A DNA stretch of 61,278 bases from a virus (lineage: Duplodnaviria; Caudoviricetes), in IMG/VR virus record IMGVR_UViG_3300033153_009450, positions 1-61,278 of that record, one strand, 5' to 3'. The position numbers and the translations under genes were made by a program. The notes beneath the pieces were generated by a model. That model searched no databases, was not told where the DNA came from, and was given only the letters and a program-made list of their open reading frames with translations. Numbering within the stretch: position 1 is the first letter of the stretch; each line of letters opens with the position of its first letter. This document shows, piece after piece, positions 21,987 to 60,893 of this stretch.

Positions 21987-22451
21987 TTAAAGTTTATAAA
22001 ACCAATGGCCTCCCCATTTAAAAACAGGGATTTTTTCCTCTGCCCAATAGGGTAGTTTAAACTCATGTATCCTACCGGTAGTGCTCACTTCTGTCTTAAC
22101 CTCCACATGATAATGGTTAGCTCCGTTTGTTATATCGCCAACCCAATCATAAAGAACAAGAAAGGCCGCCGACCAGCACTCCCGCCACCATGCCTCAGAC
22201 CAGAAATGTTTGAAGTACCGATAAAGGAAATATGGGGCTATCTCCATAGTCCTGTTGATAGAATTCAGACAAGAAAATTGTTTAGCCTGTAGAATGACAG
22301 CCTTGTAATCATTAGACCATCTACGAGAATCATTAACCCTGTTACGCACAGCGCAGGCCACGGCCAGCTTGCCTACGAAGTCTTCTCCGGCTGCTTCACC
22401 TATTATCATACCGGTGAATAGGTCTTGTACGTCAAGTTCAGATAGTTTCAT
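21987..22451 (-). CDS. SleB/Hydrolase_2 cell-wall hydrolase (endolysin)
   Basis: IIGEAAGE...AVA...NRV...QFSC...TNGANHYH...HWFY. Confidence 0.88.
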   Translation of the reverse strand: MKLSELDVQDLFTGMIIGEAAGEDFVGKLAVACAVRNRVNDSRRWSNDYKAVILQAKQFSCLNSINRTMEIAPYFLYRYFKHFWSEAWWRECWSAAFLVLYDWVGDITNGANHYHVEVKTEVSTTGRIHEFKLPYWAEEKIPVFKWGGHWFYKL

Positions 22452-22592
22452 TCTTTCCTCTCGTTCTCCCGCCTTTGGCGGGACTAACCACCTGGTTCCG
22501 ATGCTCCGCGTCGGAACTTCTTCGTCTTTACCTTCAGCCTTCAGCCTTCAGCCTTCCACCTGGTTCCGATGCTCCGCGTCGGAACCGATGAT

Positions 22593-22931
22593 TTAACCCT
22601 TTTCCAACACAGCGATCATTTTTTTGAGTTCTTCCAGCGGACTCTTGATCCCTAAATTATTCTTTATCAGCGTGATATCGGTCCGCAACGACTCGAAAGA
22701 TCCTTGTCCTTTTTCCAGCAGGGCTGTATGTTTATTCAAAGATGTACATAAAGTCTTTACCTCGGCTCTCATATCGCACCTCTTGCAATCGTCTTCAGAT
22801 AAATACCCTTTCAGGGTTTCAGTTAGCTTTTCACCAAACTCCCCCCTTGCCTTATAATATCCGATTATCATTCCGGCGATGGTTCCAATTATGGCAACAA
22901 CTGCCACAACCGCCCATGCTTCAGGATTCAT
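22593..22931 (-). CDS. Holin-like single-TM coiled-coil protein
   Basis: N-terminal TM helix; directly upstream of the endolysin. Confidence 0.5.
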   Translation of the reverse strand: MNPEAWAVVAVVAIIGTIAGMIIGYYKARGEFGEKLTETLKGYLSEDDCKRCDMRAEVKTLCTSLNKHTALLEKGQGSFESLRTDITLIKNNLGIKSPLEELKKMIAVLEKG

Positions 22932-32300: not shown

Positions 32301-35300
32301 TGGCTGATATAAGTGGATATGGCGCTTTCTTCGTTCGCATAAGAGCTGACAGGCTTTACAGGAATCATATTCCCGTGTTCACCAACAAATAATGTCTGTG
32401 TATTTTGATATATATTATCAAGATACAGCGTGAATCCCCGGTACCCGCCAACAGCTAATGTTCGCTCTCTGAATTTCTTCTTGCCCTCGATCTTAGCCAT
32501 CCCGTATAGCTCGGCAAGGGCCTGGCCTGCCTCTTTCTTGTCCGTGATGGTTTTTTCTTCAATGTCGTATTCAGGAATTCCGTGGATTATAAAGCTGAAT
32601 TCCTTGTCGTCAGGTTTTGGCTGCCTGGTCTCAATATCCTTCTTTATATCCTCTATCCTTCTTCCCACCGATGTTATTCGGGTCTTTCTCGATGCAATCC
32701 CGGATTGTAAATCGAACCTCTGATCCATCCATCCACGATGCATGGCCTCCATTTTTATCAGGTCGGCATCAACCCTGACCTTTTCCAGAATCAGCGGGTT
32801 GCTGGACGCAATAGCCTTTACAGTGGCATAATCCAGAACGGCCTTGCCGATATCCTCCATCTCATCGACACCGCCCTTCATGGCCTGCACAATGAATTTT
32901 GCCTTGTTCTCTAATATCTGCCAGCGATACGCATCGAACGTGCCCCGTGTGACGTACCGGATAATATGAACTTCATCGTTCAGATTGTCGGGCCTGATAG
33001 CCCTGCCGTCTCTCTGTTCCACATCGGAAGGACGCCATGGTGCATCAAGATGATGAATGGCAATCAGTTTTCTTTGCACATTCATACCTTCTCCCATCTT
33101 GCCGGTGCTTCCCATCAAGATTCGCACCTGCCCTCTATTCATTTTTAAAAATAGTGCCGCCTTTTTCGCATCCGTATTGGCATCATGGATAAAGACGATC
33201 TCCTTCTCCGGTATGCCTCTATCTATGAGTTTTTGCCTTACATCATGATACACGTTGAATTCGTCTTTTTTGGGAATCGAAAAATCGCAGAAAATAAGCT
33301 GGGTGAGCTTGTCTTCGGAAGTCTTTTTATAAATATCAACAGCCCGGTTGATCATTAGATTGACCTTACTGCCGGGATTATCAGGTAGGGTCGGCTCGAT
33401 AAGCCGCATATCAAGGGCCGCCTTTACCCCATCCGTTGTTACGACTAAGGCATTATCTTCTCTGGGGTCAACCTGTCCACTGCGTATCGCATCCATGCGC
33501 CCGTCTAATTCCTGGATATACTCTTTCTGTTCATCCGATGGTTCCGCCCGGTTGATATCAGGTTCCCCGCCGACCATCTTGGGGACTTTCAGAAAGGGAA
33601 TATCTTCAATATGCACAATATCCGCGAACTCCCGGAACAGGGTGGATAGCTGGCCCATATTAATGAAATTCCTGAATCTGGTATGCATCCTGAAACCTGA
33701 TCCGGTAGGCGTTACCTCCGGCTCTTCCGCAACATCCCCGAAAGTAGCGGCCCATGCATCGAAATTATGGATCTGCAGATCTTTCAATACATCCTGGGCC
33801 AGATACCTCTGTATGGTAAACATCTCGCCCATGGAGTTTGAAATAGGAGTGCCGGTTGCAAAGATAACACCCCTGCCATTATTAAGGCGCTGGACATACT
33901 GTGCCTTTAGAAATAAGTCCATGGTCTTGTCCGCGCCCTGCATCTGTACCCCGGCAACACGGGTCATGCGGGTTGCGGCCCACAGGTTCTTGAACTTGTG
34001 GGATTCATCCACAAACATATAGTCGATGCCTAATTCCTCGAATGTTACGGTCTTGTCCCTCTCACCTTTTTTAAGCACCGTAGCCAGGCGGACTTCCAGC
34101 CGTCTTTTTGACTTTTCAAGCTCCTTGACTGTCTTGGTCTTGCGCCTGCCGCGATCATAAGCCGGGAGACCAGCCTCTTCTTCTATAACAGCGGCCTCTA
34201 ATTCCTGGATCTGCGCCCGGATAAAATCGGCCTGGGCCTTCTTGCTCATGGGTAGCTTGATCATATTTGGGTGGGTGATTATGACTGCATCCCAGTCGCC
34301 CGTGGTTATCCGGGCCATAAACTCGGCCCTCTGGGCGGGTGTGAGGCTCTTTTCAGTAGGGGCAAGGAGCTTGGCGCCGGGATAAAAACGCATGAATTCG
34401 CTCTGCCACTGCATAATCAAATGCTTTGGCACGATAAACAGAGGCTTTTTCGATAATCCTAACCGCTTCAGCTCCATTGCCCCCGTGATCATAGAGAGCG
34501 TCTTACCCGATCCAACCACATGGCCTAACATGGTATTCCCGCCGTGTATAATCCGCCACACGGCATCTTTTTGATTAGGTCTCAGGCTGGCCCACGCAGC
34601 CATGCCTGGCAAACGATCAGGAAGATGGCCTCCGTCATATTTCCGGTTGCGCACACTGTTAAAATTACGGTTATAGATTTCAATCAGATTCCGTTGTCTT
34701 TCGATATCCTCAAAGATCCATTTCTCAAAATGTTCTTTTATCTCTTTCTGCTTGACCTGCGCATTCACGGTGGCGGTCTGATCAACATGGGATTTGCCCT
34801 CGCTGTCGGTATACGTAATAACCGTGGCCTTTAGATTGAGCGCATCCCCGATCAGGCGGATTGCATCCGCTCCGTGAACACCCCATCTTTGCTCTCTCAA
34901 CATATTGTCAGAGCCGGACCATCTATCAAATTCCGTTACCCATGTGGCCGTCTCCGGGATATATTTTACCTTGTGCCCCCGGGCGCTTATGAGTTCGCTC
35001 AGGTACTCTTCGATATAATTGTTAGGAATCCAGCCCATACCCAACCGTGCCTTAATCCTGGATGGCGGGATATCCTCGGGTTGGGCCTTTTCCAGCGCCT
35101 CTATGTTTTCCTTATATTTACTGTCTATCTCCGCTGCTGCCCTGGCCGCCTCTAACTTGGCCCTTACATTGCCGGAGAGATATTCGTCCGCAGTTACCCG
35201 CTTCTCGCCTTCGGGATCTAAATAAACCATCCCTTTGAGTTCTTTTTCCAGCGATTCAACGCTTTGCCCGGATATACGGGCCATATGCTCGAAATCCAGC

Positions 35301-38300
35301 CCACCTCGCTCAAACATCGAGACGACAAGGGCATCCTGGGCTGTTTCAACCTTCTCGACCGGTGTGAACCGGGCCATAGTCGGCTTTCTGAATATATCGG
35401 CCTTCTCGGCTGTTTTTTCTTCCGGGTCGTAAACTTCTAATGAAAGCAACAGGGGAAGATCAGGATCATCTTCTACTGACTTCATGTTATATACATTATG
35501 GATATATCCGTAATTTTTGACAAAACGGTCGTAAACCTGGTTGAGTTTTTTCAGGTCGGATTGTTCTAAGTCTGTTTTGCCTTCAAGCTGGTTGTGGAGT
35601 GTCTGGCGGGTAATGTCCCGCAACCGGACAAGCCCCTTTATACGACCCAATTCCTTCTTTGTGCCGGGGACCGGGATAGCGTCGTCACCCTTTTTCTGGT
35701 AGATCTCCCCGTCCTGCTCAAAATAGGCGAAATTTTTGACGGTATCCGGCGCTGGCATAAGGTCTTCTGTTTTCGGGGCCTCTGTAGCCTCATGCACGGG
35801 TTTTATATACATCTCCGCAGGTATGCCCGTATCAATCGCACCGGCAAGGGCCTCGCCTAAATCCCGTCCGTCAGACGCCAGAGCCGCCCGTCCCGGATGC
35901 AGCTTATCGTCAACAAGTTTTCCAAGCATCATGTGCGGATATTTGGCAAAATACTCATTAATAAGGTATTTCTTATATTCCTTTGTCTCTACCCATTTAG
36001 CCCCCCTGGGCTTCTTGCCTGCCTCTAACTTGCGCAAAAAGATGATATCCGCCGTAACCTCGGTATTTGCTATCTTCTTGAACGCATCGCCCGGTAAGCG
36101 GATCGCGGCGACCAGTTCCGCACGCTCGGAGATGTATTCCCGGATCCGGGAATCCTTTTTATTCATCATACCCGCAGAAGTAATAAAGGTAATCAGGCCG
36201 CCGGGCCGTACCTTATCAATGGATTTTGCAAAGAAATAATCATGAATGAAAAATTTCAGGTGGTTATAGTCGGGATCAAAGACCTTGTAATCCCCGAAAG
36301 GAACATTGGAAATGGCAAGATCAAAGAAATCATTTGGCAGTTTGGTGTCTTCATATCCCTGCACGCGGATATCCGCTTCCGGGTAAAGCAGCTTTGCGAT
36401 CCTGCCGGATATTGAATCAAGCTCGATGCCGACAATTTTAGAATTCCATTCTGCCGGTACAAGCCCTTCAAACATACCCGTACCGCCCATGGCTGGATCT
36501 AAAAGTCGTCCGCCGTCAAATCCCATGCGTTTTAAGGCATCGTATATATTTGAAACAATTAAGGGCGAGGTATAGTGTGCATTAGGTGTGCTGGCCCTTG
36601 CGGCCTCGTATTCCTCTTCGGTGAGTAGTTCTTCTAATTTTTCAGCACGCCCGGTCCATGGTGTATCTTTATAGGAATAGGTCTTAAACGCCTCGGGCAT
36701 ACCGCCCCAGCCCACATACTTGACCAGAACAGCCTGGTCTTCAGGTGTGGCCTGCCGTTTTTCTTCCTCAATTTTTTTTAGGAGTTTTATGGCAGCGATA
36801 TTGCGGTCGTATTTCGCGACCTTGCCGCCGGATTCGATATCGTCTCGGTCGGTTATTCGGTAGTTTCGCCCAGCTTCGGGACCTCTTCCTCGCTCGGCAG
36901 GAGGATGTGCTGGGGCAGTACGATCTCTTCGGCCTCGTAGATCTTCAGCCCCTTCAGCACGAGGTTGCGCACTTCCTCGCCCGCCCTCTCCCCGGACTCC
37001 TTCAGGAACTCGTTCAGCTCTCCCTTCTCCTGCAATTCCTGAAACATCGTCGGGCGGAATTCCTTCAAGTGGTCGTGTGCCCTCAGTGCGTACCCCCTCA
37101 ACTCTTTCAGGTTTGCGTCCACCTTCTTCACCCCCTATCTCTTCTCTGACGAATTTTTCAAAATAGGGCCTACCCCTAATTCCAAGATTGTCTACGGCAA
37201 TGGAAACAAATTCTTCAAGGCTTTTTCCCGCAGCAACGATCTCGTCCCATGCCTCTTTGAGTAAGACCCTGACCTGTTGCCATGTTGTATCGTTCTCATC
37301 TATTTCCTCAAACGATATTACGCCTTCATCACCTAATAACTTATTGATCTCTTTAAACTTGGAAACTGCGTTCGCAACATGCTCCCCGGCCTCTTTCAGT
37401 TTCTCCTTTGCCGGTGGTTTCGCACCCTGCCTGGCAGCCTGTTCCTTTTTCTTTTCTGCCAGCCTGCGATCATATGCTGCTAACAAATCTTCAGGGGTTG
37501 CTTTTAATTTAACCTCTTTTTTCTCCTTTGTCAAGGCCCCTGTTTCTTCCTTGTCCGCCGGAGCTTCTCTGTCCGCCTTAGCCTTGGCGGCGGCGGAAGC
37601 GGCGGCGGATTCAACAACTTCCGGCGCCTTACCTGTCTCGGCCTCCACTTCTTTGTCCGATGCCTGTATCTTAGCACCGCTGTCGGTCTTGACAAGATAA
37701 CCGACCATTCCACCGGCCTTTGTCCCGTAGATCGTTGTAAACTTAATAGAAATTACCTCGACAACCTCACCATGCTGCTTGGTCCCGGTCTTAAGTACAA
37801 CCCGATCACCCTTTGCGAACTTGCTTGGCTTTTCTACCTCTTCTTCTACCCCAGCTTCTTTGACTTCGCCTTTTTTTTCTTCCAGTACTCCACCTGGTTC
37901 AGCCGGTGATACGCCGTGCCCTTCGCCGGGTTCTTCCGGTCGCCTTTCTCCTGGTACGGGCCGCCCAGGTGCCTTCTCTTCCCGTCCGGGCCTTTCTTCT
38001 CGCTCAGGACGTGATACCCGTCCTTTCTCTTCACTAACATGTTCCTTCTCCTTAATGGTATATGGCAGGCTTTCTTTTTCAAGAATTTCTATAACCTTAT
38101 CGTAAGGGATACCAACGTCTTCCCCTTCTTCATTAAAGAATACATTCTCGCCGAAAACCTCAACAGCGGCATCCTGCTCATCGCCGGAAAAATCATCAGG
38201 CAGCCATGCCCTGCCATCATCCCGGATCTCAACATAACTCCTGCCGCCCCGGGCATTCTCGAAATCAATCCCTGCTACGTCTTTGGCAAGCAGTGTCTTA

Positions 38301-40834
38301 CCGGTCAATACAAGCGGCTTTTTACCCGCCGGTTCTGTGGCGGGCCGTCCCGTCATCGCCGCTACGGCTGGACTTGGCTTTTTTGGCTTTCGTAATGTAG
38401 TTACTACCAAATGAGTTTCTTGTTCTACCTTGCCTTCAATACCTGGGATTTCAATGGCTTCAATGTCATGTCCTTCTCTGAATTTCTCGACCTTAAAGCC
38501 TTCTTCCTCCGCAAATTGTTTTATTTCCCCGGGTGTCCAATAGCTGACCCATTTATCGCCTGTCTTGGTCCGGGTATAGAGAAACAATTTAGCCTGTCCG
38601 CCGGGCCTTAAGACTCGATTTATCTCTCTGAATGTAAACCTTATGGGTGTGGAATGAAGAGCTGCCACGGAATAAACAGCATCGAATGATTCGTCCTCAT
38701 ATTGAAGATTTTCCGCATCTCCTACTTCAAATGCAATATTCTTTACGCCCCTTGCGGCTTTCTTTGCCCTCTCAATAGCCTTGTCAACGACGTCGATCCC
38801 TGTAACATCGTGGCCTTTCTTTGCCATAAAAATACTATCACGACCATTGCCGGTGCCTATTTCTAATATATCGGCATTTTTTAAATCTTCACGGTCGAGG
38901 TCTTCAATTATTTCGTCGGCAAGAGGGGAATGCTCTTTTTCTTCGACATAATGAGGTTCTTCCACTTCCGCATATTCCTTTTGCCATTCATCGGAAGTCA
39001 TCTTTTTATTGTATGCTTCAATGCGCTTCTTCTCTTCACTGGATCTTTCAGAAAATGGAATCACCTCTTTTGCTTCCGGCGGAGGTTGAACCTTCTTACC
39101 CGTCATCGCCGCAATGCCCTGGCCTTTCTTCCCTTCTACCTTCAGCCTTTCACCTTCCACCTTCTTAGTGGTGGGAACCCCCTCCGTCATTGCAGTTCGG
39201 TCAGGCTGCTCGGGAGGGGGCTTTGGGGTTGGCTCTGGGATTTCTTGAATCTTTTTTTCTTCGGCTAATTCCTCAGCCGCTATCCTTTGCTCTTCTTCCT
39301 CATGGGCCAACTCGTCCGCCATAGCTTTACCCGCCGTCAGTGTGGTGGGTTCGGCGGCGGCGGATTCTTCGGCTGCAATGGCCTCCATGTCCGCCATAGC
39401 CTCGGCGGCGGCGGATTCTTCAACCCTAATTCTCTCAGCTTCAATCTTAGCGGCCTCTTCCTCGGCAATAATCTCACCCATTATGCCTTCAGCTTTGAGC
39501 CTCTTTTCCTCTTCAGCCTTCAGCCTTCTACCTTCTGCCTTCTCTTCTAATACCGATTCTTCACCGATATCCTTAATCATGCCCTGGTTATCGGAAATTC
39601 CACCCTCGTCTTCCTTCAGCCTTCTACCTTCTACCTTTTCTTTTTCTACCTTCTCCCTGAATTTCCTTGCTACCTCGACAAGATCCTCGCCCATCGCTAT
39701 GGATTCTTTTTTAATGACCGCGATGGTAGCGTTCATCTTCCATACACGGGCGATATCCGCGTCAACATCCTTTAAGGTTTTGTAGACCTCATTAACGGCA
39801 GATAGCCGGATCTTTTTATCTTCCTGCGTATCTGCTAATTTCTTCGCAATATCCCTGCGCTGCAAACTGGTTATGCTTGATCCAACCCCGAAGAAGATAA
39901 TACTTGCAACCGCAGTAGGGCCTAATGCGCTTTGCGCTGCTTCCCAGAATCTAACATCACCCATGCCGATATCATGGGCAAGCTCGGCCTGGACACCGGC
40001 GGTCGCTGTCTCGGTAGATACCTCGGCAAACATAATTCCACCGGCCTTTTTTAAATGCTGCCTGAATCCGGTACGAAATATTTGTTTGAGCCCGGCTTTT
40101 AAAGCGGATTTTGCAGGTGTTGTTAAAGGCTTTGCAATTCCAACGGTCAGACCTTCTAAGATATTCGAGACAAACTCAAAGCCGCCTTCCGCCATACCGG
40201 ACAGCATGGCATTGGTTTGTGCCTCACTTTTCGGGATACCTTTCTTTTCTGCCTCTTCAATAAAACTGTCATATTCCGCCAATCCGAACTGGACCCCGCC
40301 GCTTAATGCATAGCCGATCAATGCGCCTATTGCGGTACCCACACCCGGACCGAATAGTGTCCCGATTCCAGCGCCTGCTACGGCACCGGGAGCACCGGCT
40401 AAGAGTGATTGAACCGCTGCTTCAACACCTTCTGTAACCCACCGGCGCCATCCTTCTTTTGATTGCGGTGTTGGTTGGACAAATGGTGTCTCTTCTCTGA
40501 ATCTCTCAATGCTCTCTATGCCTGATGTTGCGGCTTCCTCTATCCAGTCTATCCCGCCTTCAGGGTCCAGAGTACGCAGCGCTCTTAATCCGGTTTCACC
40601 GGCTGAAAGTACGCCACGGGAGATCAAAGAACCTGCTTCCGCAAAAAAACCCCGCTCCGCAGGCGGGTCCCTTATCTCACTCGGTTCCTCTCCCAATAAC
40701 TCCGCAACAGTGAAATATTTTCGACCTGCCCGCCGGACGGCAGGCGGGTCTGAAACAGGAGGTCTTTTTACCGGAATAAACGGCGAGGGAGTTTCTTCTC
40801 CTAATAGTTCTCTGGCTGTATAGAATGAAGCCAT
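26339..40834 (-). CDS. Giant polyvalent/internal virion protein: class I SAM methyltransferase, DarB-like N6-MTase plus SNF2 helicase, HExxH and EEIQSD domains
   Basis: LEIGTGNG; LDPAMGGTG, NVPF, VGSGKT, DESH, ATGTP, QRDGR; HESVH; follows the ejection-protein genes. Confidence 0.9.
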   Translation of the reverse strand: MASFYTARELLGEETPSPFIPVKRPPVSDPPAVRRAGRKYFTVAELLGEEPSEIRDPPAERGFFAEAGSLISRGVLSAGETGLRALRTLDPEGGIDWIEEAATSGIESIERFREETPFVQPTPQSKEGWRRWVTEGVEAAVQSLLAGAPGAVAGAGIGTLFGPGVGTAIGALIGYALSGGVQFGLAEYDSFIEEAEKKGIPKSEAQTNAMLSGMAEGGFEFVSNILEGLTVGIAKPLTTPAKSALKAGLKQIFRTGFRQHLKKAGGIMFAEVSTETATAGVQAELAHDIGMGDVRFWEAAQSALGPTAVASIIFFGVGSSITSLQRRDIAKKLADTQEDKKIRLSAVNEVYKTLKDVDADIARVWKMNATIAVIKKESIAMGEDLVEVARKFREKVEKEKVEGRRLKEDEGGISDNQGMIKDIGEESVLEEKAEGRRLKAEEEKRLKAEGIMGEIIAEEEAAKIEAERIRVEESAAAEAMADMEAIAAEESAAAEPTTLTAGKAMADELAHEEEEQRIAAEELAEEKKIQEIPEPTPKPPPEQPDRTAMTEGVPTTKKVEGERLKVEGKKGQGIAAMTGKKVQPPPEAKEVIPFSERSSEEKKRIEAYNKKMTSDEWQKEYAEVEEPHYVEEKEHSPLADEIIEDLDREDLKNADILEIGTGNGRDSIFMAKKGHDVTGIDVVDKAIERAKKAARGVKNIAFEVGDAENLQYEDESFDAVYSVAALHSTPIRFTFREINRVLRPGGQAKLFLYTRTKTGDKWVSYWTPGEIKQFAEEEGFKVEKFREGHDIEAIEIPGIEGKVEQETHLVVTTLRKPKKPSPAVAAMTGRPATEPAGKKPLVLTGKTLLAKDVAGIDFENARGGRSYVEIRDDGRAWLPDDFSGDEQDAAVEVFGENVFFNEEGEDVGIPYDKVIEILEKESLPYTIKEKEHVSEEKGRVSRPEREERPGREEKAPGRPVPGERRPEEPGEGHGVSPAEPGGVLEEKKGEVKEAGVEEEVEKPSKFAKGDRVVLKTGTKQHGEVVEVISIKFTTIYGTKAGGMVGYLVKTDSGAKIQASDKEVEAETGKAPEVVESAAASAAAKAKADREAPADKEETGALTKEKKEVKLKATPEDLLAAYDRRLAEKKKEQAARQGAKPPAKEKLKEAGEHVANAVSKFKEINKLLGDEGVISFEEIDENDTTWQQVRVLLKEAWDEIVAAGKSLEEFVSIAVDNLGIRGRPYFEKFVREEIGGEEGGRKPERVEGVRTEGTRPLEGIPPDDVSGIAGEGRAERVPEGVRGEGGRGSAQPRAEGAEDLRGRRDRTAPAHPPAERGRGPEAGRNYRITDRDDIESGGKVAKYDRNIAAIKLLKKIEEEKRQATPEDQAVLVKYVGWGGMPEAFKTYSYKDTPWTGRAEKLEELLTEEEYEAARASTPNAHYTSPLIVSNIYDALKRMGFDGGRLLDPAMGGTGMFEGLVPAEWNSKIVGIELDSISGRIAKLLYPEADIRVQGYEDTKLPNDFFDLAISNVPFGDYKVFDPDYNHLKFFIHDYFFAKSIDKVRPGGLITFITSAGMMNKKDSRIREYISERAELVAAIRLPGDAFKKIANTEVTADIIFLRKLEAGKKPRGAKWVETKEYKKYLINEYFAKYPHMMLGKLVDDKLHPGRAALASDGRDLGEALAGAIDTGIPAEMYIKPVHEATEAPKTEDLMPAPDTVKNFAYFEQDGEIYQKKGDDAIPVPGTKKELGRIKGLVRLRDITRQTLHNQLEGKTDLEQSDLKKLNQVYDRFVKNYGYIHNVYNMKSVEDDPDLPLLLSLEVYDPEEKTAEKADIFRKPTMARFTPVEKVETAQDALVVSMFERGGLDFEHMARISGQSVESLEKELKGMVYLDPEGEKRVTADEYLSGNVRAKLEAARAAAEIDSKYKENIEALEKAQPEDIPPSRIKARLGMGWIPNNYIEEYLSELISARGHKVKYIPETATWVTEFDRWSGSDNMLREQRWGVHGADAIRLIGDALNLKATVITYTDSEGKSHVDQTATVNAQVKQKEIKEHFEKWIFEDIERQRNLIEIYNRNFNSVRNRKYDGGHLPDRLPGMAAWASLRPNQKDAVWRIIHGGNTMLGHVVGSGKTLSMITGAMELKRLGLSKKPLFIVPKHLIMQWQSEFMRFYPGAKLLAPTEKSLTPAQRAEFMARITTGDWDAVIITHPNMIKLPMSKKAQADFIRAQIQELEAAVIEEEAGLPAYDRGRRKTKTVKELEKSKRRLEVRLATVLKKGERDKTVTFEELGIDYMFVDESHKFKNLWAATRMTRVAGVQMQGADKTMDLFLKAQYVQRLNNGRGVIFATGTPISNSMGEMFTIQRYLAQDVLKDLQIHNFDAWAATFGDVAEEPEVTPTGSGFRMHTRFRNFINMGQLSTLFREFADIVHIEDIPFLKVPKMVGGEPDINRAEPSDEQKEYIQELDGRMDAIRSGQVDPREDNALVVTTDGVKAALDMRLIEPTLPDNPGSKVNLMINRAVDIYKKTSEDKLTQLIFCDFSIPKKDEFNVYHDVRQKLIDRGIPEKEIVFIHDANTDAKKAALFLKMNRGQVRILMGSTGKMGEGMNVQRKLIAIHHLDAPWRPSDVEQRDGRAIRPDNLNDEVHIIRYVTRGTFDAYRWQILENKAKFIVQAMKGGVDEMEDIGKAVLDYATVKAIASSNPLILEKVRVDADLIKMEAMHRGWMDQRFDLQSGIASRKTRITSVGRRIEDIKKDIETRQPKPDDKEFSFIIHGIPEYDIEEKTITDKKEAGQALAELYGMAKIEGKKKFRERTLAVGGYRGFTLYLDNIYQNTQTLFVGEHGNMIPVKPVSSYANEESAISTYISQLNREIDGLDGELKRYEDLIKKLNTEVSSLESESVNKETFKDIDKLEELRKKSREINATLMGAAPEIAPAAGRAYYKLNNNKEFEALLDAKGVEIVPWLETFIHQDKDMGTWIVSDARSGIIVRQGLSKKEAIDNARQALEGHGEEEVLGLSEQSVEEYGESPWVTGESAAKAKADMEKPEQYSVTPAIAALTKKHNLTYDGRWESLAGRPYAFTDNVTNSSVTVKDLKDLPARIKQLHESFGVLPEAAKRQKTRGFVTDAISLDDVRAVFKGQHVGISPDGDIWVRTKAGHGVTIKTVQQISEDSASFKLTYGRQKETGEFIAGKYKSGVIEIQEDIGNKWTLSHESVHFFEDAGILTNRDIAALKTRIKQLVNNGKFTTRNKEDIGGPEDRASYIADQLNKDVKGPVGRILKKIRDWVERFVNLFHRTARGVARDIETGRIFDLKTGPGAAEQAQMFATTAPPFYSQLMRAVETATDMPRKVQSLTKWLQRKQVKPAEMKWMGVEDWLKENQKEGKIDKDAFLDFLKANQIEIREIEKSVRHTDITADIQDAALTDAIEEFRGIIGEAEPGGMIDEEMIVEEYPDRDIGISVSAFWKRRVDELLNEYEDSGGGNDNASEELLKLTGVDIEGLYEQHIDQLKEGAGSPKFETYTLPGGEGYRELLFMLPEISVKQDFSLDDAAQEQYGKRFNDLNVDEKHIASLLHRRKSKDEIISPDTYRATHWDEPNVLAHVRFNERTDAEGKRVLFIEEIQSDWLQEAKEKGFKGQLKPLTPKEKTDAIDRLKQIERDIISATKDKDADRLRMLEEEARGLHNRMYATDVGVPPAPFLENWHEVCMKRMLRYAAENGFDTVAWTKGKHQIARYEDALRQNVDEIRWFKNTAAGEVEVSAKKKNNSVFSANIPLKGTTAIKGKEVELKDVIGKPLAQQIITSKEPYGTFKGEDLSIGGIGMRAFYDELLPGFMRKYVKQWSGKVGEQKIVTKEPAAGAVGLEVGDWAYYRTPEGPKWLRKDMAKNLERASEADFKDDLETVHSVDITSEMKQSVLFEGQAYYSVQKQPTGREVAQDIENDRSFVNKLFEMKDLAVFRIQNSVWDLQDQVKRLAGPASRKKLTLGFAYKPELKRSFASDQLDKAMTIRRDLGDNLEKADEFRAWAKEQLAGDIPARDRLKIKGQLKILDQAFKLTDEQNDFVDHMGDLFEDAFSLANAHKIIKTHRDNYVRRLWKLPEGKAEEFRGTGPGYGFKVYTTAAKQRTFDTILDGWMAGYELRVQGITSSYERYMTELATIMSNKAFLQRGVATVDVSGNAMFTAKPKPGYAPLKASGFSVWRWAGKAEIESEFRDEEALVVDTYGRKFFATTPERIPEQFAVYKNEESKKAIKLFDTMEEAEEFADKRHYDRIERRPPKDVSKMFEKQPLYAPKPIAEMINKMTATDTLFNTTPVAKELLRLNTGIKTWILLSSFFHHMAGTRSWVFGVHHGWKNVNPVKAFKAGLKKIEDLHPLIELGIKNGLTVGELQDWAESELRASTGLTEKLVNYLGLEKTGKVIEAGRFYRERFTDSLFKKYFAGLKAEAFVVEYTHELQKENEKYTSGRSKLPPNPNQIAERVARLINADFGGLHLKRMGRNPTLQKMARMLLLAPDWTESNFRTVSGMVPGLNKFISKTVGDVPGPKAMEDVYRRFWGRVMLRIAVSTIVAQLLLNGSDETEEFLEEQLLSNKANKLRWTEIDVTKLYHMLGVDTEGQRKTFSLGGHFFDPLKLIDPFRLVKHKGSPFVRAASAAFSGSDWAERPFTGIKEFVTTGKTIKKSAFQEKVGGLNRLPSVVVNQVVNMQPIQVGHFIRYMQGEEDGLTAIMHSMGAATHTAWGPRLETPIIAAEKGPDPVMDVINEMLKNETLNMGPPSRYLNINGVNQKMSREQYDKYLEESSTIARRKLAGIINSRRSDEWKARKIRAVIRNARKRIRGKIKRMMVKEGRRLKAEGKKEAA
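36853..37131 (-). CDS. TnpV-like small protein nested in the +1 frame of the giant ORF
   Basis: YALRAHDHLKEFRPTMFQELQEKGELNEFL...YEAEEIVL; the giant frame here is low-complexity. Confidence 0.65.
   Translation of the reverse strand: MKKVDANLKELRGYALRAHDHLKEFRPTMFQELQEKGELNEFLKESGERAGEEVRNLVLKGLKIYEAEEIVLPQHILLPSEEEVPKLGETTE
37846..38040 (-). CDS. Small basic phage protein nested in the +1 frame of the giant ORF
   Basis: AAGGAGAAGGAAC-ATG; MLVKRKDGYHVLSEK...HLGGPY...AYHRLNQVEYWK. Confidence 0.65.
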   Translation of the reverse strand: MLVKRKDGYHVLSEKKGPDGKRRHLGGPYQEKGDRKNPAKGTAYHRLNQVEYWKKKKAKSKKLG

Positions 40835-51550: not shown

Positions 51551-51598
51551 TTGCCCTCTCTCTCTACCTTCAGCCTTCTACCTTCAGCCTTCTTCACA

Positions 51599-53346: not shown

Positions 53347-53389
53347 CTACTTCCCTTCAGCCTTCAGGCTAAATACCTTTAACCTTCTT

Positions 53390-53872: not shown

Positions 53873-53997
53873 GATTTATTACCTCCTTAATTGGATTGAA
53901 GGTATTTAGGCTGAAGGCTGAAATAGCTTTCTTTCCTTCAGTCTTCTACCTTCGACCTTTAACCCTGGTTCCGATGCTCTGCGTCGGAACCAATTGT

Positions 53998-54966
53998 TTA
54001 CGCGCTTGCAATCCTCACAATCCGCGCTTCCATGTCGGTGGCCGTAGGGAACTTTGTGCCGAATGCCACAAGGCCATACCAGGCCACAGCGCCACGACGC
54101 CCGAAATCGCCTAAGTAATTGGGTTGCGCCCGCAGATGCGGATATTCCACCTCGATGCGTGCCACGGCATCCTCACCGAAAATAACTCCCTCGCCCAACA
54201 CATTGCCGCTTCCGACTGAATTGGACAGGGCGCTCTCGTTTTCGACCTCGATGCACCGCACGTTCTCCACCTGGCCGATCTCGCCGCGATAGATATGGTC
54301 CCCCTTCTGGAGATACAGGTTCCACGCCTCGATCACCTTATCGTCCCGCAGGCCGCGAAGTCCCTTTGTAGAAATCAGGCCGATATAGTGCTCTCCGTCA
54401 CCCCAGAAAGGCACATGCAGATCCTTAACCATATAGTCGCGGATAGCGGAAAGATGGTCCTTGGTCAGGTTTACCAATGCGGTAGTGGAGGGCGTACCGT
54501 CCGTATCCCATGTCCCGCCCGTAAGGCTGGTCGGGATAAAGATCACCTTGACATCGGTGCCGGTAAACTCCGCAGCCGCCGCATTGTCCATAGCCTTATT
54601 CATTTGAAGGGTGAGGGCCTTCTGTGCTCCCTCTTTGGGGTTAAACTTGGAAAGCTGCATTGCAAGATTGGTATATTCAACGCCGCGCCCCCATTCCTTA
54701 ATGGTAATGGTTTGCTTTCCCATTGTGAGCTGATCAATCGGGATGCGGATATCCTCGGTCAACTGGGCGTTTGTCGGATCGCTCAGGGCCTTGTAATACA
54801 GCAGCGTGATTGATTCGCCCTTGCCTTTGCCGAAGGAGTCTTCCTTATTCGTAAACGGAACGAATTTGAATTTCCTTGCGGCTAACGTCAAAAGCTTACC
54901 GGACAGCGTATGATTCTTATACACTCCGGTCGCTGCATCATATGTCCATGTAAACGTTGCACCCAT
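53998..54966 (-). CDS. Major capsid protein (N4-gp56-like, HK97 fold)
   Basis: GKGKGESI, EWG, GEIG..ENVR, DFGR...AWY; follows the scaffold gene. Confidence 0.88.
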   Translation of the reverse strand: MGATFTWTYDAATGVYKNHTLSGKLLTLAARKFKFVPFTNKEDSFGKGKGESITLLYYKALSDPTNAQLTEDIRIPIDQLTMGKQTITIKEWGRGVEYTNLAMQLSKFNPKEGAQKALTLQMNKAMDNAAAAEFTGTDVKVIFIPTSLTGGTWDTDGTPSTTALVNLTKDHLSAIRDYMVKDLHVPFWGDGEHYIGLISTKGLRGLRDDKVIEAWNLYLQKGDHIYRGEIGQVENVRCIEVENESALSNSVGSGNVLGEGVIFGEDAVARIEVEYPHLRAQPNYLGDFGRRGAVAWYGLVAFGTKFPTATDMEARIVRIASA

Positions 54967-55105
54967 TTTTTACTCCTTTCTTTCTTCGGCCTTCAGCCTT
55001 CAGCCCCTGTCCGTCTTAGCCCTGAGTTCATCGAAGGGCGGCGGCGGATTCAGCCTCTTTTCTTTCTTCCTTTGAGCTTTGAGCTTTCAGCTTTGAGCTT
55101 CATCT

Positions 55106-56290
55106 TCATAACACTCGTTCCTCACGAACTTTTTCCAGCGCATCGTCTAAGGAGACCGGTTTGGATTCGTCCTCGTCTTTCTTTTCCGCAGGGGTGGTTG
55201 TGGTTGATCTACCCAACGCCAGATCCTCCTCCTGCTGCTTTTTGTTTTTATCCGTGATCTCCGTTTTCAACGATGTACGGAAATTCTTTTCCTGGGAACT
55301 GTGATATTTTATTGTTTCATCAATGGCCCATTGGACCTGCTCGGGGATGGTCAATTCCTTTCCCTCCGCGTCAACATTCGGGGTTGACCTGCAAACTAAT
55401 AGAAAATGTTCGTCTTCAGGTTCTATCCCCGCCTCCTTTGCCTTATTATCCCTGTACACAACCACTTTCTTTGCCTGCGTTTCTGCATCATCATCTTCGG
55501 AAACCTCAAAGGTTTCTTGCCCGCCGTCTGGCTGGCGGGATTCCGCAGGTGAGGTTGTTTCGTCAGGGGTTGTTGATACCCCCTGCTCGCGTTCAAATCT
55601 CCTGATATCCCCGTCACGCTTCGCAAAGATTTTAGCTACCTGTTTTTGATAATCGTCGGCATCGGCATCCAACTCGTCGATTGCCAAAAGCGCCTTCTCG
55701 TAACAATCAGTGGCAAAATCCTCAGCTTCGGTTTCCGCTTTCTCCAGCTCGGCTTTACGCTTTTCTGCGGTCTCAAGATCCGTGATGCGTTTTCGCAGCG
55801 CAGCGTTCTCCTGTTCTACTTTGGTCTTCTCGCCCTGGAGATTCCGGTACCCTTCCTCAGACTCTTCATGAGTCTTAAATCTGGGTTCCTTAGCTTCCTT
55901 GTCCGCCTTAGCCTCTGCTTCCTTGGCCTTCTTTTCCTCTTCTTCCCTTTGAGCTTCTTTCTCGGGGTCTTCAGTCTCCTTTTCCTTTTCTTCCTTCAGC
56001 CTTTTACCTTCAGTCTCTCCTGGTGCAGGGCTGCTCTCTTCAGGTTTCTTGCCCGCCTTAGCCTTGGCGTCGGCGGATGCGGTCTCTTCTTTATCCGCCG
56101 GTGTTGTGGCGGATTCGTCTGCGGCGGCCTCAACGAGTTCTCCGCCATACTTTGCAAGTCCGTCCTTCATTACCTGATCAAGATCCAGCGTAGTCTGCTC
56201 TCCTTCTTTTCCCATCTCAAATCCTCCTTTTACCCGCCGGATGGTGGCGGGTGGCGTAGTCCCGTATCGGGGGCCTTTAATTTGCGCCAA
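55106..56290 (-). CDS. Scaffold-like acidic protein (start probably 56215)
   Basis: FKTHEESEEGYRNLQ coiled coil; AAGGAGG before MGKE. Confidence 0.7.
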   Translation of the reverse strand: MAQIKGPRYGTTPPATIRRVKGGFEMGKEGEQTTLDLDQVMKDGLAKYGGELVEAAADESATTPADKEETASADAKAKAGKKPEESSPAPGETEGKRLKEEKEKETEDPEKEAQREEEEKKAKEAEAKADKEAKEPRFKTHEESEEGYRNLQGEKTKVEQENAALRKRITDLETAEKRKAELEKAETEAEDFATDCYEKALLAIDELDADADDYQKQVAKIFAKRDGDIRRFEREQGVSTTPDETTSPAESRQPDGGQETFEVSEDDDAETQAKKVVVYRDNKAKEAGIEPEDEHFLLVCRSTPNVDAEGKELTIPEQVQWAIDETIKYHSSQEKNFRTSLKTEITDKNKKQQEEDLALGRSTTTTPAEKKDEDESKPVSLDDALEKVREERVL

Positions 56291-56739: not shown

Positions 56740-58692
56740 TCAGTCTTCAGCCTTCATTCCTTCTTTACCTGCCTCCAGGCCCTGTATCCTGGCCGCTATT
56801 TCCTTAATATCCCCGCCTTGCGATTCTATTTCCTGGACCTTCTCGATTAGCTCGGTTATACCCATCGCCTCCTGAAGATCCTGAAGTTTCTCCGCAGCGT
56901 CCATCTGCTTGGCCTGGACCAATCGCTGCTGAATGTCAATCATCTTTGCCTCATCCTCGGTTGCTATAACTTCCTCATCCATGAGGTTGGCCCGTCGTTC
57001 AACTGCCTTCAATATTTTGAAAGGCTTAATATACAGTGCATAGCGAGGTTTTTCTGATAACGGGATGATAATCTCTTTGAGATTAATTAGCGTCTCATTA
57101 TCTTTCATGAGCGCCTGGATCCCGGAGATATGAAACGACCCGTCCAATTTTGGCATCCTTACGCCGGACTTGCTGGTAGGATCCATCTCAACGCCATACT
57201 TTTTCAAGTCTTCTTCCGTAAAAATATCATCAAGGTCGGCAATACCCGCATGGGTCTCGACTATTTCCGCCCCGGCGGACACAGCCGTAACAGCACCGTC
57301 CTCCGTATTCTCCCCCATCAGGCCGAAAACACCCATGGCCTGGTCCAGATTCATGGATGCCTCTCTGAATGTTATGTCCTTGCGATATCCGGGCAATCCC
57401 TGTACGGCATCCGAGACATTAGACCCCCGCTGAAACATCTGATCATAATGCTGTGAATTTGCTAATACGTCATTCGTCCTGGATCTGCGCTGCACAACAC
57501 GGACAACCTGGTTGCCATGTACTGTATCCCTGGTCAGGTACTTCATTCCCGGATGGAGATCCGCGTCATTCGGATCGACTAAGCCGTCCACATTGATCTC
57601 GGTAGGCGGGTCAACTACCCATTTCAGGTAATCTTCATGCATACACATGATATTGCACATGGCTTCCCATATGGTAAGAACACCCTCTAACAACCCCCGC
57701 CCGCCGAACTTCAAAATATCGGGAAGGGGAGAAAAGGAAATACCCGGCCACCTGAGCGTCTTATATGGTGATGCCTTTGGCTTCTGAATAACCCGGCCAC
57801 CTGCGAAGGTGTATTTCGCCCTGGGCAGAAGCATCTCGCCTTGGGGGTCGAGCACAATCCCCCAGAACTCGGAAGTCAAAATCATCTTCCTGAACTCCGA
57901 GCGCTCCCATATTTGTTCTTTCCTGGCTGCGATGGCCTCTTTTGTCATAAAGGGATTTGCGGGGTCCGTATCGCCGACGTCCTTAACCCGGGCCACATCA
58001 AAGTAACGGTTCTTTTTTTCACCGTCTTTCAAGACAAAATAATCCAACCATTCCTGATGTATCCAATACATACCCGACTGGCAATCCCTGGAGAGGGCAT
58101 CGGGTTCCCTATGTATCTTCCAGGGTTCAACCAGGCTGTATTCCAACCCTTTGTTAGGAATCCACCGGGGTATCATCTCCATGCTTACGCCGATAGCCAG
58201 GGCCATTACATCGGCATCCGTAAACTTCAGCGTGAAATTAGCGTGTTTATTGTTCAACTGATGGCTCATTAATTTTTGCCAGAAATCACCATCTTCTTTA
58301 TTTTTGGTATTCTCGATGCTAAGAAAATTCGGGGAAAACGCCTTCCTGACGGCAGCCGTTGCAAACTGCACCGTATTAAACGGCTTCGGCACAATGGTTC
58401 GTGACTGCCAAGGTTCCTTGTCTGCATAGCTTCCAGGTTCTTTCTCATTGTACACATGCCAGCAATACGCCTGTACCTGACGAACTTCTTCGTTTGCTTT
58501 TACGGATTGTTTAATACAATCCATTCCGTAATCTACAAAATGCTGTTCGTTCTCACTCGCATATGCATCGGCGGCATCTTCCCTCTCTTTCATTTCCTTA
58601 TCGTCAATGACGGAAAGACTGGCCGCCTTCTTCTCGATCTGCGCCCGGCGATTCTTTAATTCATCTGAAGGATCTTCTATTCTGATCACCAT
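56740..58692 (-). CDS. Portal protein
   Basis: 650 aa after terL; WQSRTIVP, EFWG, FGGRGL. Confidence 0.8.
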   Translation of the reverse strand: MVIRIEDPSDELKNRRAQIEKKAASLSVIDDKEMKEREDAADAYASENEQHFVDYGMDCIKQSVKANEEVRQVQAYCWHVYNEKEPGSYADKEPWQSRTIVPKPFNTVQFATAAVRKAFSPNFLSIENTKNKEDGDFWQKLMSHQLNNKHANFTLKFTDADVMALAIGVSMEMIPRWIPNKGLEYSLVEPWKIHREPDALSRDCQSGMYWIHQEWLDYFVLKDGEKKNRYFDVARVKDVGDTDPANPFMTKEAIAARKEQIWERSEFRKMILTSEFWGIVLDPQGEMLLPRAKYTFAGGRVIQKPKASPYKTLRWPGISFSPLPDILKFGGRGLLEGVLTIWEAMCNIMCMHEDYLKWVVDPPTEINVDGLVDPNDADLHPGMKYLTRDTVHGNQVVRVVQRRSRTNDVLANSQHYDQMFQRGSNVSDAVQGLPGYRKDITFREASMNLDQAMGVFGLMGENTEDGAVTAVSAGAEIVETHAGIADLDDIFTEEDLKKYGVEMDPTSKSGVRMPKLDGSFHISGIQALMKDNETLINLKEIIIPLSEKPRYALYIKPFKILKAVERRANLMDEEVIATEDEAKMIDIQQRLVQAKQMDAAEKLQDLQEAMGITELIEKVQEIESQGGDIKEIAARIQGLEAGKEGMKAED

Positions 58693-59033
58693 TATTCCGC
58701 CTCAAACTTTAACATTACGTTCTCCGGGATCAATTTCCGTATCGGCCCATATTCCATGTTGGGTATAAGATCCATGGTTTCTTCCATCTGACGCAACATC
58801 AACGCCTGAATGTCTTCATCAGGTTTAACTTCTAAAAGTTCTCCTGAAAACCTGTCGTATTCAATGGCCCGCCCGTATTCTATGAAAGTAATTTCTTGCT
58901 CCCCTAATACGGGCTGAACAATAGGTTTGCTGGTAGCTTGGGGAAAACCAACAACCGTTGAAACAGGCAACGTTAAAGAAGCCGTTGAGATCCCCAGCCA
59001 CTTTAAAAAACTTCTTCTTGTTATATTTCTCAT
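58692..59033 (-). CDS. Twin-arginine-signal protein carrying a capsid-like segment
   Basis: ITRRSFLKWLG; GEQEITFIEYGRAIEY...QMEETMD aligns by eye to the major capsid. Confidence 0.7.
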   Translation of the reverse strand: MRNITRRSFLKWLGISTASLTLPVSTVVGFPQATSKPIVQPVLGEQEITFIEYGRAIEYDRFSGELLEVKPDEDIQALMLRQMEETMDLIPNMEYGPIRKLIPENVMLKFEAE

Positions 59034-59078
59034 CTACTTTCCTTGCCTTCAGCCTTCAGCCTAAATACCTTCAACCTT

Positions 59079-59336
59079 TTATATTCCCGCATCCAATGCA
59101 TCAGGAAATATCCTCTCAAATTCCCGTTTATAATTATTACTCACATTCCCTGGCTTCCAGTCACTGTCCCTCGACTTACAATGATCTGCGCAAGCATTCG
59201 GATCCGGCTCTCCGTTCCAATCCTCTCCGGCCTCACTCTCTGCCCCACAATCCTTACACTTAAATATCTTATGCTTGCCTTTGTCATACGGCCCGCCTTC
59301 GCTCATTGGCCAGTATCGGTCAAATTTCCCCGCCAT
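59079..59336 (-). CDS. Small phage protein
   Basis: CKDC; SNNYKREFERIF. Confidence 0.6.
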   Translation of the reverse strand: MAGKFDRYWPMSEGGPYDKGKHKIFKCKDCGAESEAGEDWNGEPDPNACADHCKSRDSDWKPGNVSNNYKREFERIFPDALDAGI

Positions 59337-59417
59337 CTTTACCTTCAGCCTTCAGCCTAAATACCTTCAACCTGATGTTTTTTTTAATCTTCAATCTTCA
59401 CTAATCAATCGTCAATC

Positions 59418-60893
59418 CTACAGCCCCGCCGGAATGCCGCCCACACTAACCCTGGTCCTGCGGCTGAAATTCCCACCCCTGTAACTCATGGCCCGCTTTT
59501 TCTTTTCCGCATCAGTTACCTTTTTGAGTTCCTTGCGGGGATCAAAAGGCATCAATATTGCAATCCCGTTAGCGAACGCATCCCCCGGGTGGCTGTGCTC
59601 ATTTTTTACCGGCTTATCACCGGTCACATTCCCGTTATTATCGGTTTTGTAATGCCAGCCGCCTTTCAGGGCCCTGTGCAGGAGAACAGCGGACCGGGAT
59701 AAATACACCGCAGGGAGCCCGTTATCCAATCCCTTACGGAAACTTGGGTTTAAGGAGTCCTTTATGGTATTCCAGTGGGCCGGACCAGGCTCGAACCGTG
59801 GCCGGGCCGTGGGCGATGCAAAAGCGGCTTCGATTATTTTTGAGGTAACGGACTTGACACTACTCTGATCCGGAGTGGTCATTGTGCGGTCGCCCATAAG
59901 GCGGTAAGATTTGATTTTCCCTTTGTACTTGGGCGTATTGAAAAGAGGGACTAATTTATCCTCGATCAGTTCTTTTGGGGCGAGACCCTCCTTATAAACA
60001 ACGTCGTGGACAATTAGCTGCCCGGTCGGTGCATATTGCATAGTTATACAGCATGGATGCTGCCAGGAATCCCACGTCAGGATTATCTCGCCTGGCAATA
60101 CGGGCAGAATATTCTTTGAAAAATGCCGTTCCGGGCCATAAGCTAACGCCACTTTTTTACCCATATGAACGGACGCTGTTTCTCCCTCGATATACCGGGC
60201 CCTCTTCGCCGGATCATGCTGGAACGCCGCTAAGTTTGCCGCCCTGGTTAGGGGGCTTAGATGCTTGTTTTCCCCTTTCGGGATCCGGAAGGACTTCTTT
60301 ATTATCTTGGTAACATCTCCTGTATCCGGATCTTCGTAAACAGCATACTCGTCAGGTTCATCAGCCAACAGGCTCGTCCAGTGTTCTTCATCGGACGGGT
60401 TTTGCGTTATCTGGACTCGCAATATCGTGTCCTGTTGACGTGCTGCCCTGGCAATACTCATATCGAACACTTCCCGGGGGAGTCCGGCGTTTGCCTTCTC
60501 ATATATGGGCGCAGGTTCCTCTAACCATATAAGGGCATACTGCGGTCCTTGCAGCTTACTGATTGAAGCCTCGTCATCGATCCCGAAAAGATCGAAATCC
60601 ACCCTGGGCGTGGACATAATGGTCATGTGTTTTAAACCATCGGAAAAACGCACCCATGCGCCCATGCACTCCTTGATATCCGGTATGGTGGAGGTCTTTA
60701 TATTCTGAAAGGTGTCCCGGATTAACGCAGCCCGGATATTCTTTCTGTTTCGCTGGGCATGTGCGATTGAGGCGGCCATACCGGCGAAAGTCTTACCCTC
60801 GCCCATGGGGCCGAACAATTGGACGATATGAGCTAAACACGTCACAAACTCGTATTGGGTAGGGCTTAGATTAAAAAATAAATCACTCGGCAT
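59418..60893 (-). CDS. terL: Terminase large subunit
   Basis: GPMGEGKT, WLEE, TQNP, WDSW, HPGDAF. Confidence 0.9.
   Translation of the reverse strand: MPSDLFFNLSPTQYEFVTCLAHIVQLFGPMGEGKTFAGMAASIAHAQRNRKNIRAALIRDTFQNIKTSTIPDIKECMGAWVRFSDGLKHMTIMSTPRVDFDLFGIDDEASISKLQGPQYALIWLEEPAPIYEKANAGLPREVFDMSIARAARQQDTILRVQITQNPSDEEHWTSLLADEPDEYAVYEDPDTGDVTKIIKKSFRIPKGENKHLSPLTRAANLAAFQHDPAKRARYIEGETASVHMGKKVALAYGPERHFSKNILPVLPGEIILTWDSWQHPCCITMQYAPTGQLIVHDVVYKEGLAPKELIEDKLVPLFNTPKYKGKIKSYRLMGDRTMTTPDQSSVKSVTSKIIEAAFASPTARPRFEPGPAHWNTIKDSLNPSFRKGLDNGLPAVYLSRSAVLLHRALKGGWHYKTDNNGNVTGDKPVKNEHSHPGDAFANGIAILMPFDPRKELKKVTDAEKKKRAMSYRGGNFSRRTRVSVGGIPAGL

Follow-up and report, generated by a model that had tools for sequence, protein, structure and literature searches.

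Several described systems bear on ORF113, a small open reading frame (ORF) in the head-gene module of the virus record IMGVR_UViG_3300033153_009450 (Duplodnaviria; Caudoviricetes), which was analysed over its whole length of 61278 bp; "the window" refers to this entire record, which is complete and carries direct terminal repeats. Signal peptides of the twin-arginine translocation (Tat) system, represented by the models PF10518 and TIGR01409, are N-terminal and combine an S/T-R-R-x-F-L-K consensus with a moderate hydrophobic region (h-region) and a small-x-small cleavage site followed by a basic residue; Tat usually transports folded cargo. Major capsid proteins (MCPs) with the HK97 fold, among them the 'N4-gp56 family' (PF25209), are built from an N-arm, an E-loop hairpin, a P-domain and an A-domain. 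The small subunit of periplasmic [FeFe]-hydrogenase (PF02256) is a short protein with a Tat leader, a split-off piece of a larger fold, and ferries a signal-less partner by 'hitchhiking'. Phage 'morons' are accessory genes in variable slots of conserved modules, and include secreted or lipoprotein exclusion factors. In ORF113 a Tat-type leader is joined in frame to a diverged piece of the MCP of the same phage. Our searches of open-access full text, including PMC13673990 and 10.64898/2026.01.04.697583, turned up no published case of a phage encoding a Tat substrate that stems from a structural protein or a capsid fragment.

Both this chimeric build and the translational coupling between ORF113 and the portal gene are genuine and go far beyond what chance would give; the observation, first made in an initial annotation of this DNA, is confirmed, statistically robust and unusual. 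The gene lies at the position given there and is intact and well coded. Its stop overlaps the portal start as described, the TAA and the ATG sharing one base (TAATG), but the statement that it lies between terL and the portal gene holds on the portal side only, since a small gene, orf85, intervenes on the terL side. An in-frame TAG immediately precedes the ATG, no sigma-70-like promoter was found in 58300-59600, and ORF113 is presumably translated late, coupled to the portal gene. The relevant features of the window are as follows.

58692-59033, minus strand: ORF113, 113 codons plus TAA
59037-59044, minus strand: Shine-Dalgarno-like run AAGGAAAG, read from the sequence, 4-11 nucleotides (nt) upstream of the ORF113 ATG
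58929-59033, minus strand: ORF113 leader, residues 1-35, with R2, R6, R7 and K11 in the n-region and an h-region at 12-29
59001-59021, minus strand: twin-arginine motif T-R-R-S-F-L-K, residues 5-11
58749-58925, minus strand: MCP-derived core, residues 37-95, whose start is extended to residue 23 (58967) by profile alignment
58695-58748, minus strand: C-terminal tail, residues 96-113, outside every significant alignment and without a clear counterpart
56740-58692, minus strand: portal gene, translationally coupled to ORF113
59079-59336, minus strand: orf85, 85 residues, a conserved small Cys-rich gene between terL and a variable slot
59418-60893, minus strand: terL, head module
53998-54966, minus strand: MCP gene, 322 residues (Pfam Phage_capsid_4, 30.4 bits; phrog_1357)
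54565-54783, minus strand: parent-like MCP segment, residues 62-134, spanning E-loop tip, return strand, short helix and spine helix

The capsid-derived core is established by several independent comparisons. BLASTP pairs ORF113 residues 37-95 without gaps with residues 76-134 of the MCP encoded by the same phage, 21/59 being identical (44.3 bits, E 6e-11). The Smith-Waterman score of 96 stands against 28.8 +/- 4.6 for shuffled sequences, none of 2000 shuffles doing as well; the alignment holds against shuffled controls of the kind named in the initial annotation. The gapless alignment to the capsid reported there, at about 54585-54723, corresponds correctly to MCP residues 82-127 and proves to be longer than was claimed. 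With hhalign, residues 23-95 align to MCP residues 62-134 at 97.3% probability (E 1.8e-11) against an 18-sequence MCP alignment, and against a 74-sequence alignment the probability is 97.0% (E 9.3e-11). For comparison we assembled 55 related loci, 33 of them viral and found through the portal protein (44-68% identity) and 22 in metagenome-assembled genomes (MAGs) found through the MCP alignment. A hidden Markov model (HMM) of the MCP family, run over 11210 six-frame segments, matches the ORF113 core at E 1.2e-9 and detects no other small MCP-like ORF in the 55 loci, and when 3765 non-MCP ORFs from 47 loci were each compared with the MCP of their own locus, ORF113 (6e-11) stood six orders of magnitude clear of the next (about 2e-4). 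Pfam PF25209 (Phage_capsid_4) gave no match to ORF113 at E <=0.1. The tail lies beyond these alignments; MAFFT sets its L-I-P-N-M opposite the MCP block F-I-P-T-S (143-147), a tentative correspondence.

The leader carries the S/T-R-R-x-F-L-K consensus close to its N-terminus, and [ST]RRxFLK occurs just once in the six-frame translation of the whole genome (61278 bp), at ORF113 residues 5-11. Its 18-residue h-region is rich in S, T and G, with a mean Kyte-Doolittle value of 1.25, and a candidate signal-peptidase site, A-T-S at 33-35 followed by K36, was judged by eye. In its N-terminal position and its motif, and apparently also in its h-region and candidate cleavage site, the leader resembles known Tat signal peptides; it differs from them in being encoded by a phage and in its passenger, a fragment of a capsid gene rather than a cofactor enzyme, and its export is a prediction. 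Feature look-alikes of full-length ORF113 in the ESM Atlas are Tat-leader proteins, among them a periplasmic [Fe]-hydrogenase small-subunit cluster (0.92), and these disappear when residues 36-113 are used alone. The hydrogenase small subunit is also comparable in size and layout: some 35 residues of leader precede a short passenger, largely helical, that corresponds to part of a larger fold. ORF113 also matches the N-terminal end of the hydA model weakly; on the other side, PF02256 gave no match at E <=0.1, and the likeness resides in the leader. A metagenome scan returned two N-terminal matches only, one to the Tat-like leader of a predicted protease (L037) and one to the single-Arg N-terminal hydrophobic segment of a cytochrome-c-like protein (L036). 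Of five MAGs with contigs of related phages, four encode TatC, which bears on export indirectly. Judged from these sequence features, the ORF113 product is probably sent to the Tat translocon. No source of the leader could be detected. A second high-scoring segment pair (19.6 bits) against the MCP of another locus (L060) had hinted at the G-R-R...W-Y-G block of the MCP C-terminus, a candidate that was rejected with a family HMM score of -2.7 bits and 32 of 300 shuffles scoring as well.

What the core retains of the capsid fold can be read from a model of the MCP. We used the model built from the 74-sequence alignment (predicted local distance difference test, pLDDT, 78.4; predicted template-modelling score, pTM, 0.75) and discarded that from the 18-sequence alignment (pLDDT 42). 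It contains strands at 52-58 and 82-99 and helices at 100-105 and 110-135; by the HK97 fold, we take the two strands to be those of the E-loop and helix 110-135 to be the spine helix. Foldseek matches the model to the HK97-fold capsids of NF5, Pan3, GP4, N4 and HK97 (E 5e-16 to 3e-11), a search of PDB sequences with the MCP profile gave one weak match (9m66_A, E 0.014), and relatives of the MCP are labelled 'N4-gp56 family major capsid protein' by some sources. ORF113 shares with these proteins the E-loop tip, return strand, short helix and spine helix, together with many family-invariant residues; the first strand of the E-loop is absent from it, as are the N-arm, the A-domain and the P-domain sheet. 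ORF113 thus covers MCP residues ~62-134 of 322 rather than the full fold; on the modelled structure these ~73 of 322 residues make no foldable HK97 unit, and ORF113 is no capsid protein. Its charge has also changed. The MCP segment has 7 K+R and 6 D+E (net +1, isoelectric point 8.7), near neutral, whereas the ORF113 segment has 4 K+R and 14 D+E (net -10, isoelectric point 4.05).

These properties bear on the suggestion of the initial annotation that the protein is a capsid 'mimic', which is doubtful given the shift in charge and the small part of the fold that is present, and on a broader proposal in line with the ideas of that annotation, whose candidate roles also included a Tat jammer: that ORF113 is a capsid-directed factor. 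Such a protein would act in the cytoplasm or on the inner face of the membrane, its RR leader serving as an uncleaved anchor or going unused. Through the E-loop and spine-helix residues it has kept, it would bind the MCP, the scaffold or a capsid sensor of the host, and so might modulate assembly, form a tether to the membrane, inhibit related phages in a dominant-negative way or act as an immune decoy. It would account for the retention of 14 of the 21 columns of the aligned stretch whose conservation in the family is 90% or more, although part of this enrichment is to be expected simply from the change of variable columns in the MCP lineage too, and it suits a gene that sits in the head module coupled to the portal. 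Yet the piece is unable to form the HK97 fold alone, its inverted charge makes it ill suited to mimic a capsid surface, no second small MCP-like ORF is detected by the family HMM in the 55 related loci, and a consensus Tat leader argues for removal of the protein from the cytoplasm. We regard a capsid-directed role as distinctly unlikely.

A possible second case can be adduced in its favour. Among the related loci, a search for an RR motif followed by a hydrophobic stretch at ORF N-termini gave two candidates, one of which is an implausible antisense ORF and was set aside. The other is the following.

4386-4808 of contig L057, plus strand: ORF140, 140 residues, immediately following the portal gene in a distant relative

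Its N-terminus reads T-R-R-D-F-L-S and scores 15.3 bits with Pfam TAT_signal, below the cut-off of 22.7, and residues 87-119 resemble the conserved C-terminal block of the MCP encoded at the same locus (13/33 identical, BLASTP E 2e-4; 2 of 5000 shuffles as good). With 3765 comparisons of ORFs with MCPs, however, chance alone should yield about one score of this size, and ORF140, like ORF113, is an orphan for which no homologues were found. It is a lead, not support. Were both genes taken at face value, proteins with a Tat leader and a capsid fragment might be a recurrent, selected device of temperate phages with N4-gp56-type capsids, bringing a capsid peptide to the Tat translocon either to ferry bound capsid, scaffold or host protein across in the manner of hydrogenase small subunits, or to occupy TatBC and so cut the host's export of periplasmic redox enzymes late in infection; we consider such a general device very improbable.

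The position of ORF113 speaks for a gain in its own lineage. The head module runs in the order terL, orf85, ORF113, portal, orf105, a charged scaffold-like protein and the MCP. A match to orf85 is present in 21 related loci (profile searches give it weak zinc-ribbon matches only), and in the 21 loci holding both orf85 and the portal start the gap between them is <=57 nt in 11 loci, where the two genes almost touch, 181-218 nt in another 4 and 489-1272 nt in the other 6. None of the 21 has ORF113 in this slot. Gaps of at least 181 nt are filled by unrelated ORFs: a conserved basic protein of 53-64 residues just upstream of the portal (L004, L005, L009, L010, L031 and L043), a 149-residue ORF with a lipobox-like N-terminus and an HExxH motif (L009 2639-3088 and L031 3223-3672, mutually identical), a nucleotide-kinase-like ORF and further unrelated genes; the basic and lipobox-like proteins belong to those loci and not to the window. 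As for a lineage-specific accessory gene, then, the position is empty or otherwise filled in relatives, and we conclude from this that the slot is a hot spot and ORF113 a gain in its own lineage. ORF113 is moron-like in being confined to one lineage, in having relatives whose slot is empty or holds unrelated small genes (one of them lipoprotein-like), and in having its own copy of a gene-start element; it is unlike a moron in that its source is a structural gene of the phage itself, not foreign DNA, and in being coupled to a late structural gene.

The gene-start element is a 31-nt sequence built from tandem heptamers of the GGYTGAA type, and its presence directly upstream shows ORF113 to sit in a gene cassette of the kind standard for this phage. 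The element recurs exactly upstream of orf85 and in near copies by the MCP gene; chance predicts 0 copies. The repeats bounding the ORF113 cassette could have mediated its insertion.

59046-59076, minus strand: 31-nt heptamer-repeat gene-start element, directly upstream of ORF113
59342-59372: exact second copy of the 31-nt element, upstream of orf85
53354-53384, minus strand: near copy, by the MCP gene
53894-53924, plus strand: near copy, by the MCP gene

Outside the window the gene has no detectable counterpart. A word-indexed search of 5.8 billion proteins returned ORF113 itself and nothing else, tblastn against 50,697 phage records gave no match, and HMMER against 1.84 billion representatives gave ORF113 itself and one match that we deem spurious, a 2692-residue cell-wall-anchored repeat protein that is matched repeatedly and at residues 50-71 only. 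A scan of viral contigs yielded no homologue, and the metagenome scan yielded only N-terminal signal or anchor segments of unrelated proteins. In none of the 55 related loci is there a counterpart outside the MCP gene. In five MAGs, matches to ORF113 at E <=0.01 are confined to frames of 310-327 residues, which are the MCP genes, with weaker matches at E 0.09-0.7. The closest MCPs are 87% (P0039) and 82% (P0020 and P0025) identical to that of the window. The initial annotation had held that a lack of homologues retaining both the RR motif and the capsid segment would refute it; no homologue whatever was found.

Comparison with the MCP gene suggests where the fragment came from and how long ago. 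ORF113 and the MCP segment are 54% identical in nucleotide sequence, with 0.54, 0.63 and 0.44 at codon positions 1, 2 and 3. At third positions ORF113 is closer to the phage's own MCP gene (0.44) than to any other of the 25 MCP genes compared, the rest giving 0.25-0.42; the own MCP gene compared with its 76-80% identical orthologues gives 0.47-0.51, and composition alone predicts 0.24. The third-position result is suggestive, as a comparison over 59 codons carries a sampling error of about 0.065. In protein sequence the own MCP ranks 7th of 74 (23/59 identical; range 14-25), the top scorers all coming from one subclade. The nucleotide comparison suggests a duplication within this genome, about as old as the splits from the 76-80% identical orthologues.

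The same figures bear on whether ORF113 is a functional gene at all. Its codon-usage score is 0.202 bits per codon, compared with 0.247 +/- 0.086 for right-frame pieces of trusted genes (28% of which score lower); none of 196 wrong-frame pieces reaches it, and the remaining five frames of ORF113 are all negative. A neutral origin would have illegitimate or repeat-mediated recombination at the heptamer repeats place a piece of the MCP gene beside leader-like sequence, leaving a frame that is open but has no selected function. ORF113 is indeed a singleton in all databases searched, lies in a recombination-prone slot between identical 31-nt repeats, has a low-confidence predicted fold, and has a GC content of 0.42 and a third-position GC content of 0.44, under those of the MCP (0.64) and portal (0.56) genes at third positions, as drift would give. 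Against this, 113 codons have stayed open with no indel over 59 aligned codons while nucleotide identity has fallen to 54%, which points to selection against disruption; core and tail have the codon usage of real genes (0.33 and 0.32 bits per codon); the change in charge is strongly directional; and chance is unlikely to have produced or preserved a full T-R-R-S-F-L-K at residue 5 with an h-region behind it. A neutral by-product is on balance unlikely, though it deserves serious consideration.

The account we favour, tentatively and at somewhat less than an even chance, is that ORF113 is a young, lineage-specific accessory gene, formed by partial duplication of the capsid gene and addition of a Tat-type leader, whose small acidic product probably goes to the Tat translocon and the envelope. 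A cassette consisting of the 31-nt element and the chimeric frame would have been inserted into the slot between orf85 and the portal gene, the frame comprising a twin-arginine-type leader (about 35 residues), a duplicate of MCP residues ~62-134 and an 18-residue tail. The MCP copy would later have diverged to 36% identity and become strongly acidic. Translated late and coupled to the portal gene, the product would be directed by its leader to the host Tat translocon, and an acidic protein of about 78 residues would end in the periplasm or at the inner membrane of a Gram-negative host. The capsid-derived piece would then have been raw material for a new envelope-directed factor rather than a working copy of the capsid surface.

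The host itself is approached through the MAG records that contain related contigs (L038-L059), of which 12/22 are labelled as Desulfobacterota, Thermodesulfobacteriota or 'Deltaproteobacteria' lineages, including Desulfosarcina, Smithella, Syntrophus and Desulfonema, a hint as to which hosts this group of phages infects. We take these 12 labels together to represent sulfate-reducing or syntrophic 'delta-proteobacterial' lineages, and the host is probably a member of such a lineage.

Several points weigh against this account of an exported accessory protein. ORF113 has no orthologues in any of the collections searched, and therefore conservation cannot back any function. The match of the N-terminus to the Tat consensus, claimed in the initial annotation, stands for the motif, which is exact and unique in the genome, but both Tat HMMs fall just under their curated cut-offs over residues 3-23 (Pfam TAT_signal, PF10518, 19.9 bits against 22.7; TIGR01409, 14.8 bits against 16.7). 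The leader is also the part of the gene with a poor codon score (-0.07 versus 0.33 bits per codon for the core). The Atlas model of ORF113 is of low confidence (pLDDT 0.39, pTM 0.18), and because Tat cargo is normally folded, the protein might be rejected by the translocon. Coupled to the portal and lying within the head module, ORF113 is placed like a morphogenesis gene and unlike a classic moron expressed in lysogeny, and the assignment of a host depends on the binning of phage-sized contigs into MAGs, a weak guide to the host.

If ORF113 is made and exported, it would be a clear and datable case of a phage building an envelope-directed gene from a piece of its own capsid and a Tat leader. 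It would also provide a handle on the origin of orphan phage genes, by partial duplication followed by rapid, directional sequence change. As a single gene in a single uncultured phage, it has the weight of a well-documented curiosity.

The remainder of the genome provides the setting. Long ORFs lie nearly all on the minus strand, and the encoded proteins include a tyrosine integrase, a D5-type primase-helicase, a DNA methylase, a Wzy_C-type O-antigen-ligase-like protein and a cell-wall hydrolase. From this gene content, together with a protein of 4831 residues, the phage looks like a temperate phage of a Gram-negative host.

55106-56290: charged scaffold-like protein, head module
19827-20921, plus strand: tyrosine integrase
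23901-25673, minus strand: Wzy_C O-antigen-ligase-like membrane protein
21987-22451, minus strand: Hydrolase_2 cell-wall hydrolase
26339-40834, minus strand: single ORF of 4831 residues

We note that the Wzy_C-type protein may allow the phage to change the surface polysaccharide of its host. The 4831-residue product contains a class-I methyltransferase region at ~640-750 and an SNF2/DEAD-type helicase region at ~2083-2614, and may be a giant injected or anti-restriction-type virion protein.

The heptamer element is phage-wide and intergenic, lying just before the starts of many genes. With <=3 mismatches allowed, the 16-mer GGCTGAAGGCTGAAGG is matched 48 times where 0.68 are expected, 45 of these matches being on the coding strand and mostly just before a start; examples of the element are found at 54990-55005, 22531-22560, 23920-23942, 26358-26380 and 51567-51596. 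A promoter, a translation signal and a recombination site are candidate roles for it. Two further intergenic elements were seen. An inverted repeat, GTTCCGACGC.GAGCATCGGAAC, is conserved in three intergenic regions, upstream of 60893 (terL), 51106 and 22451, and another conserved element, GCCCTTCG.. ..CTCAGGG, is found upstream of three genes, the MCP gene and those that start at 22931 and 8933; both elements are probably hairpin signals.

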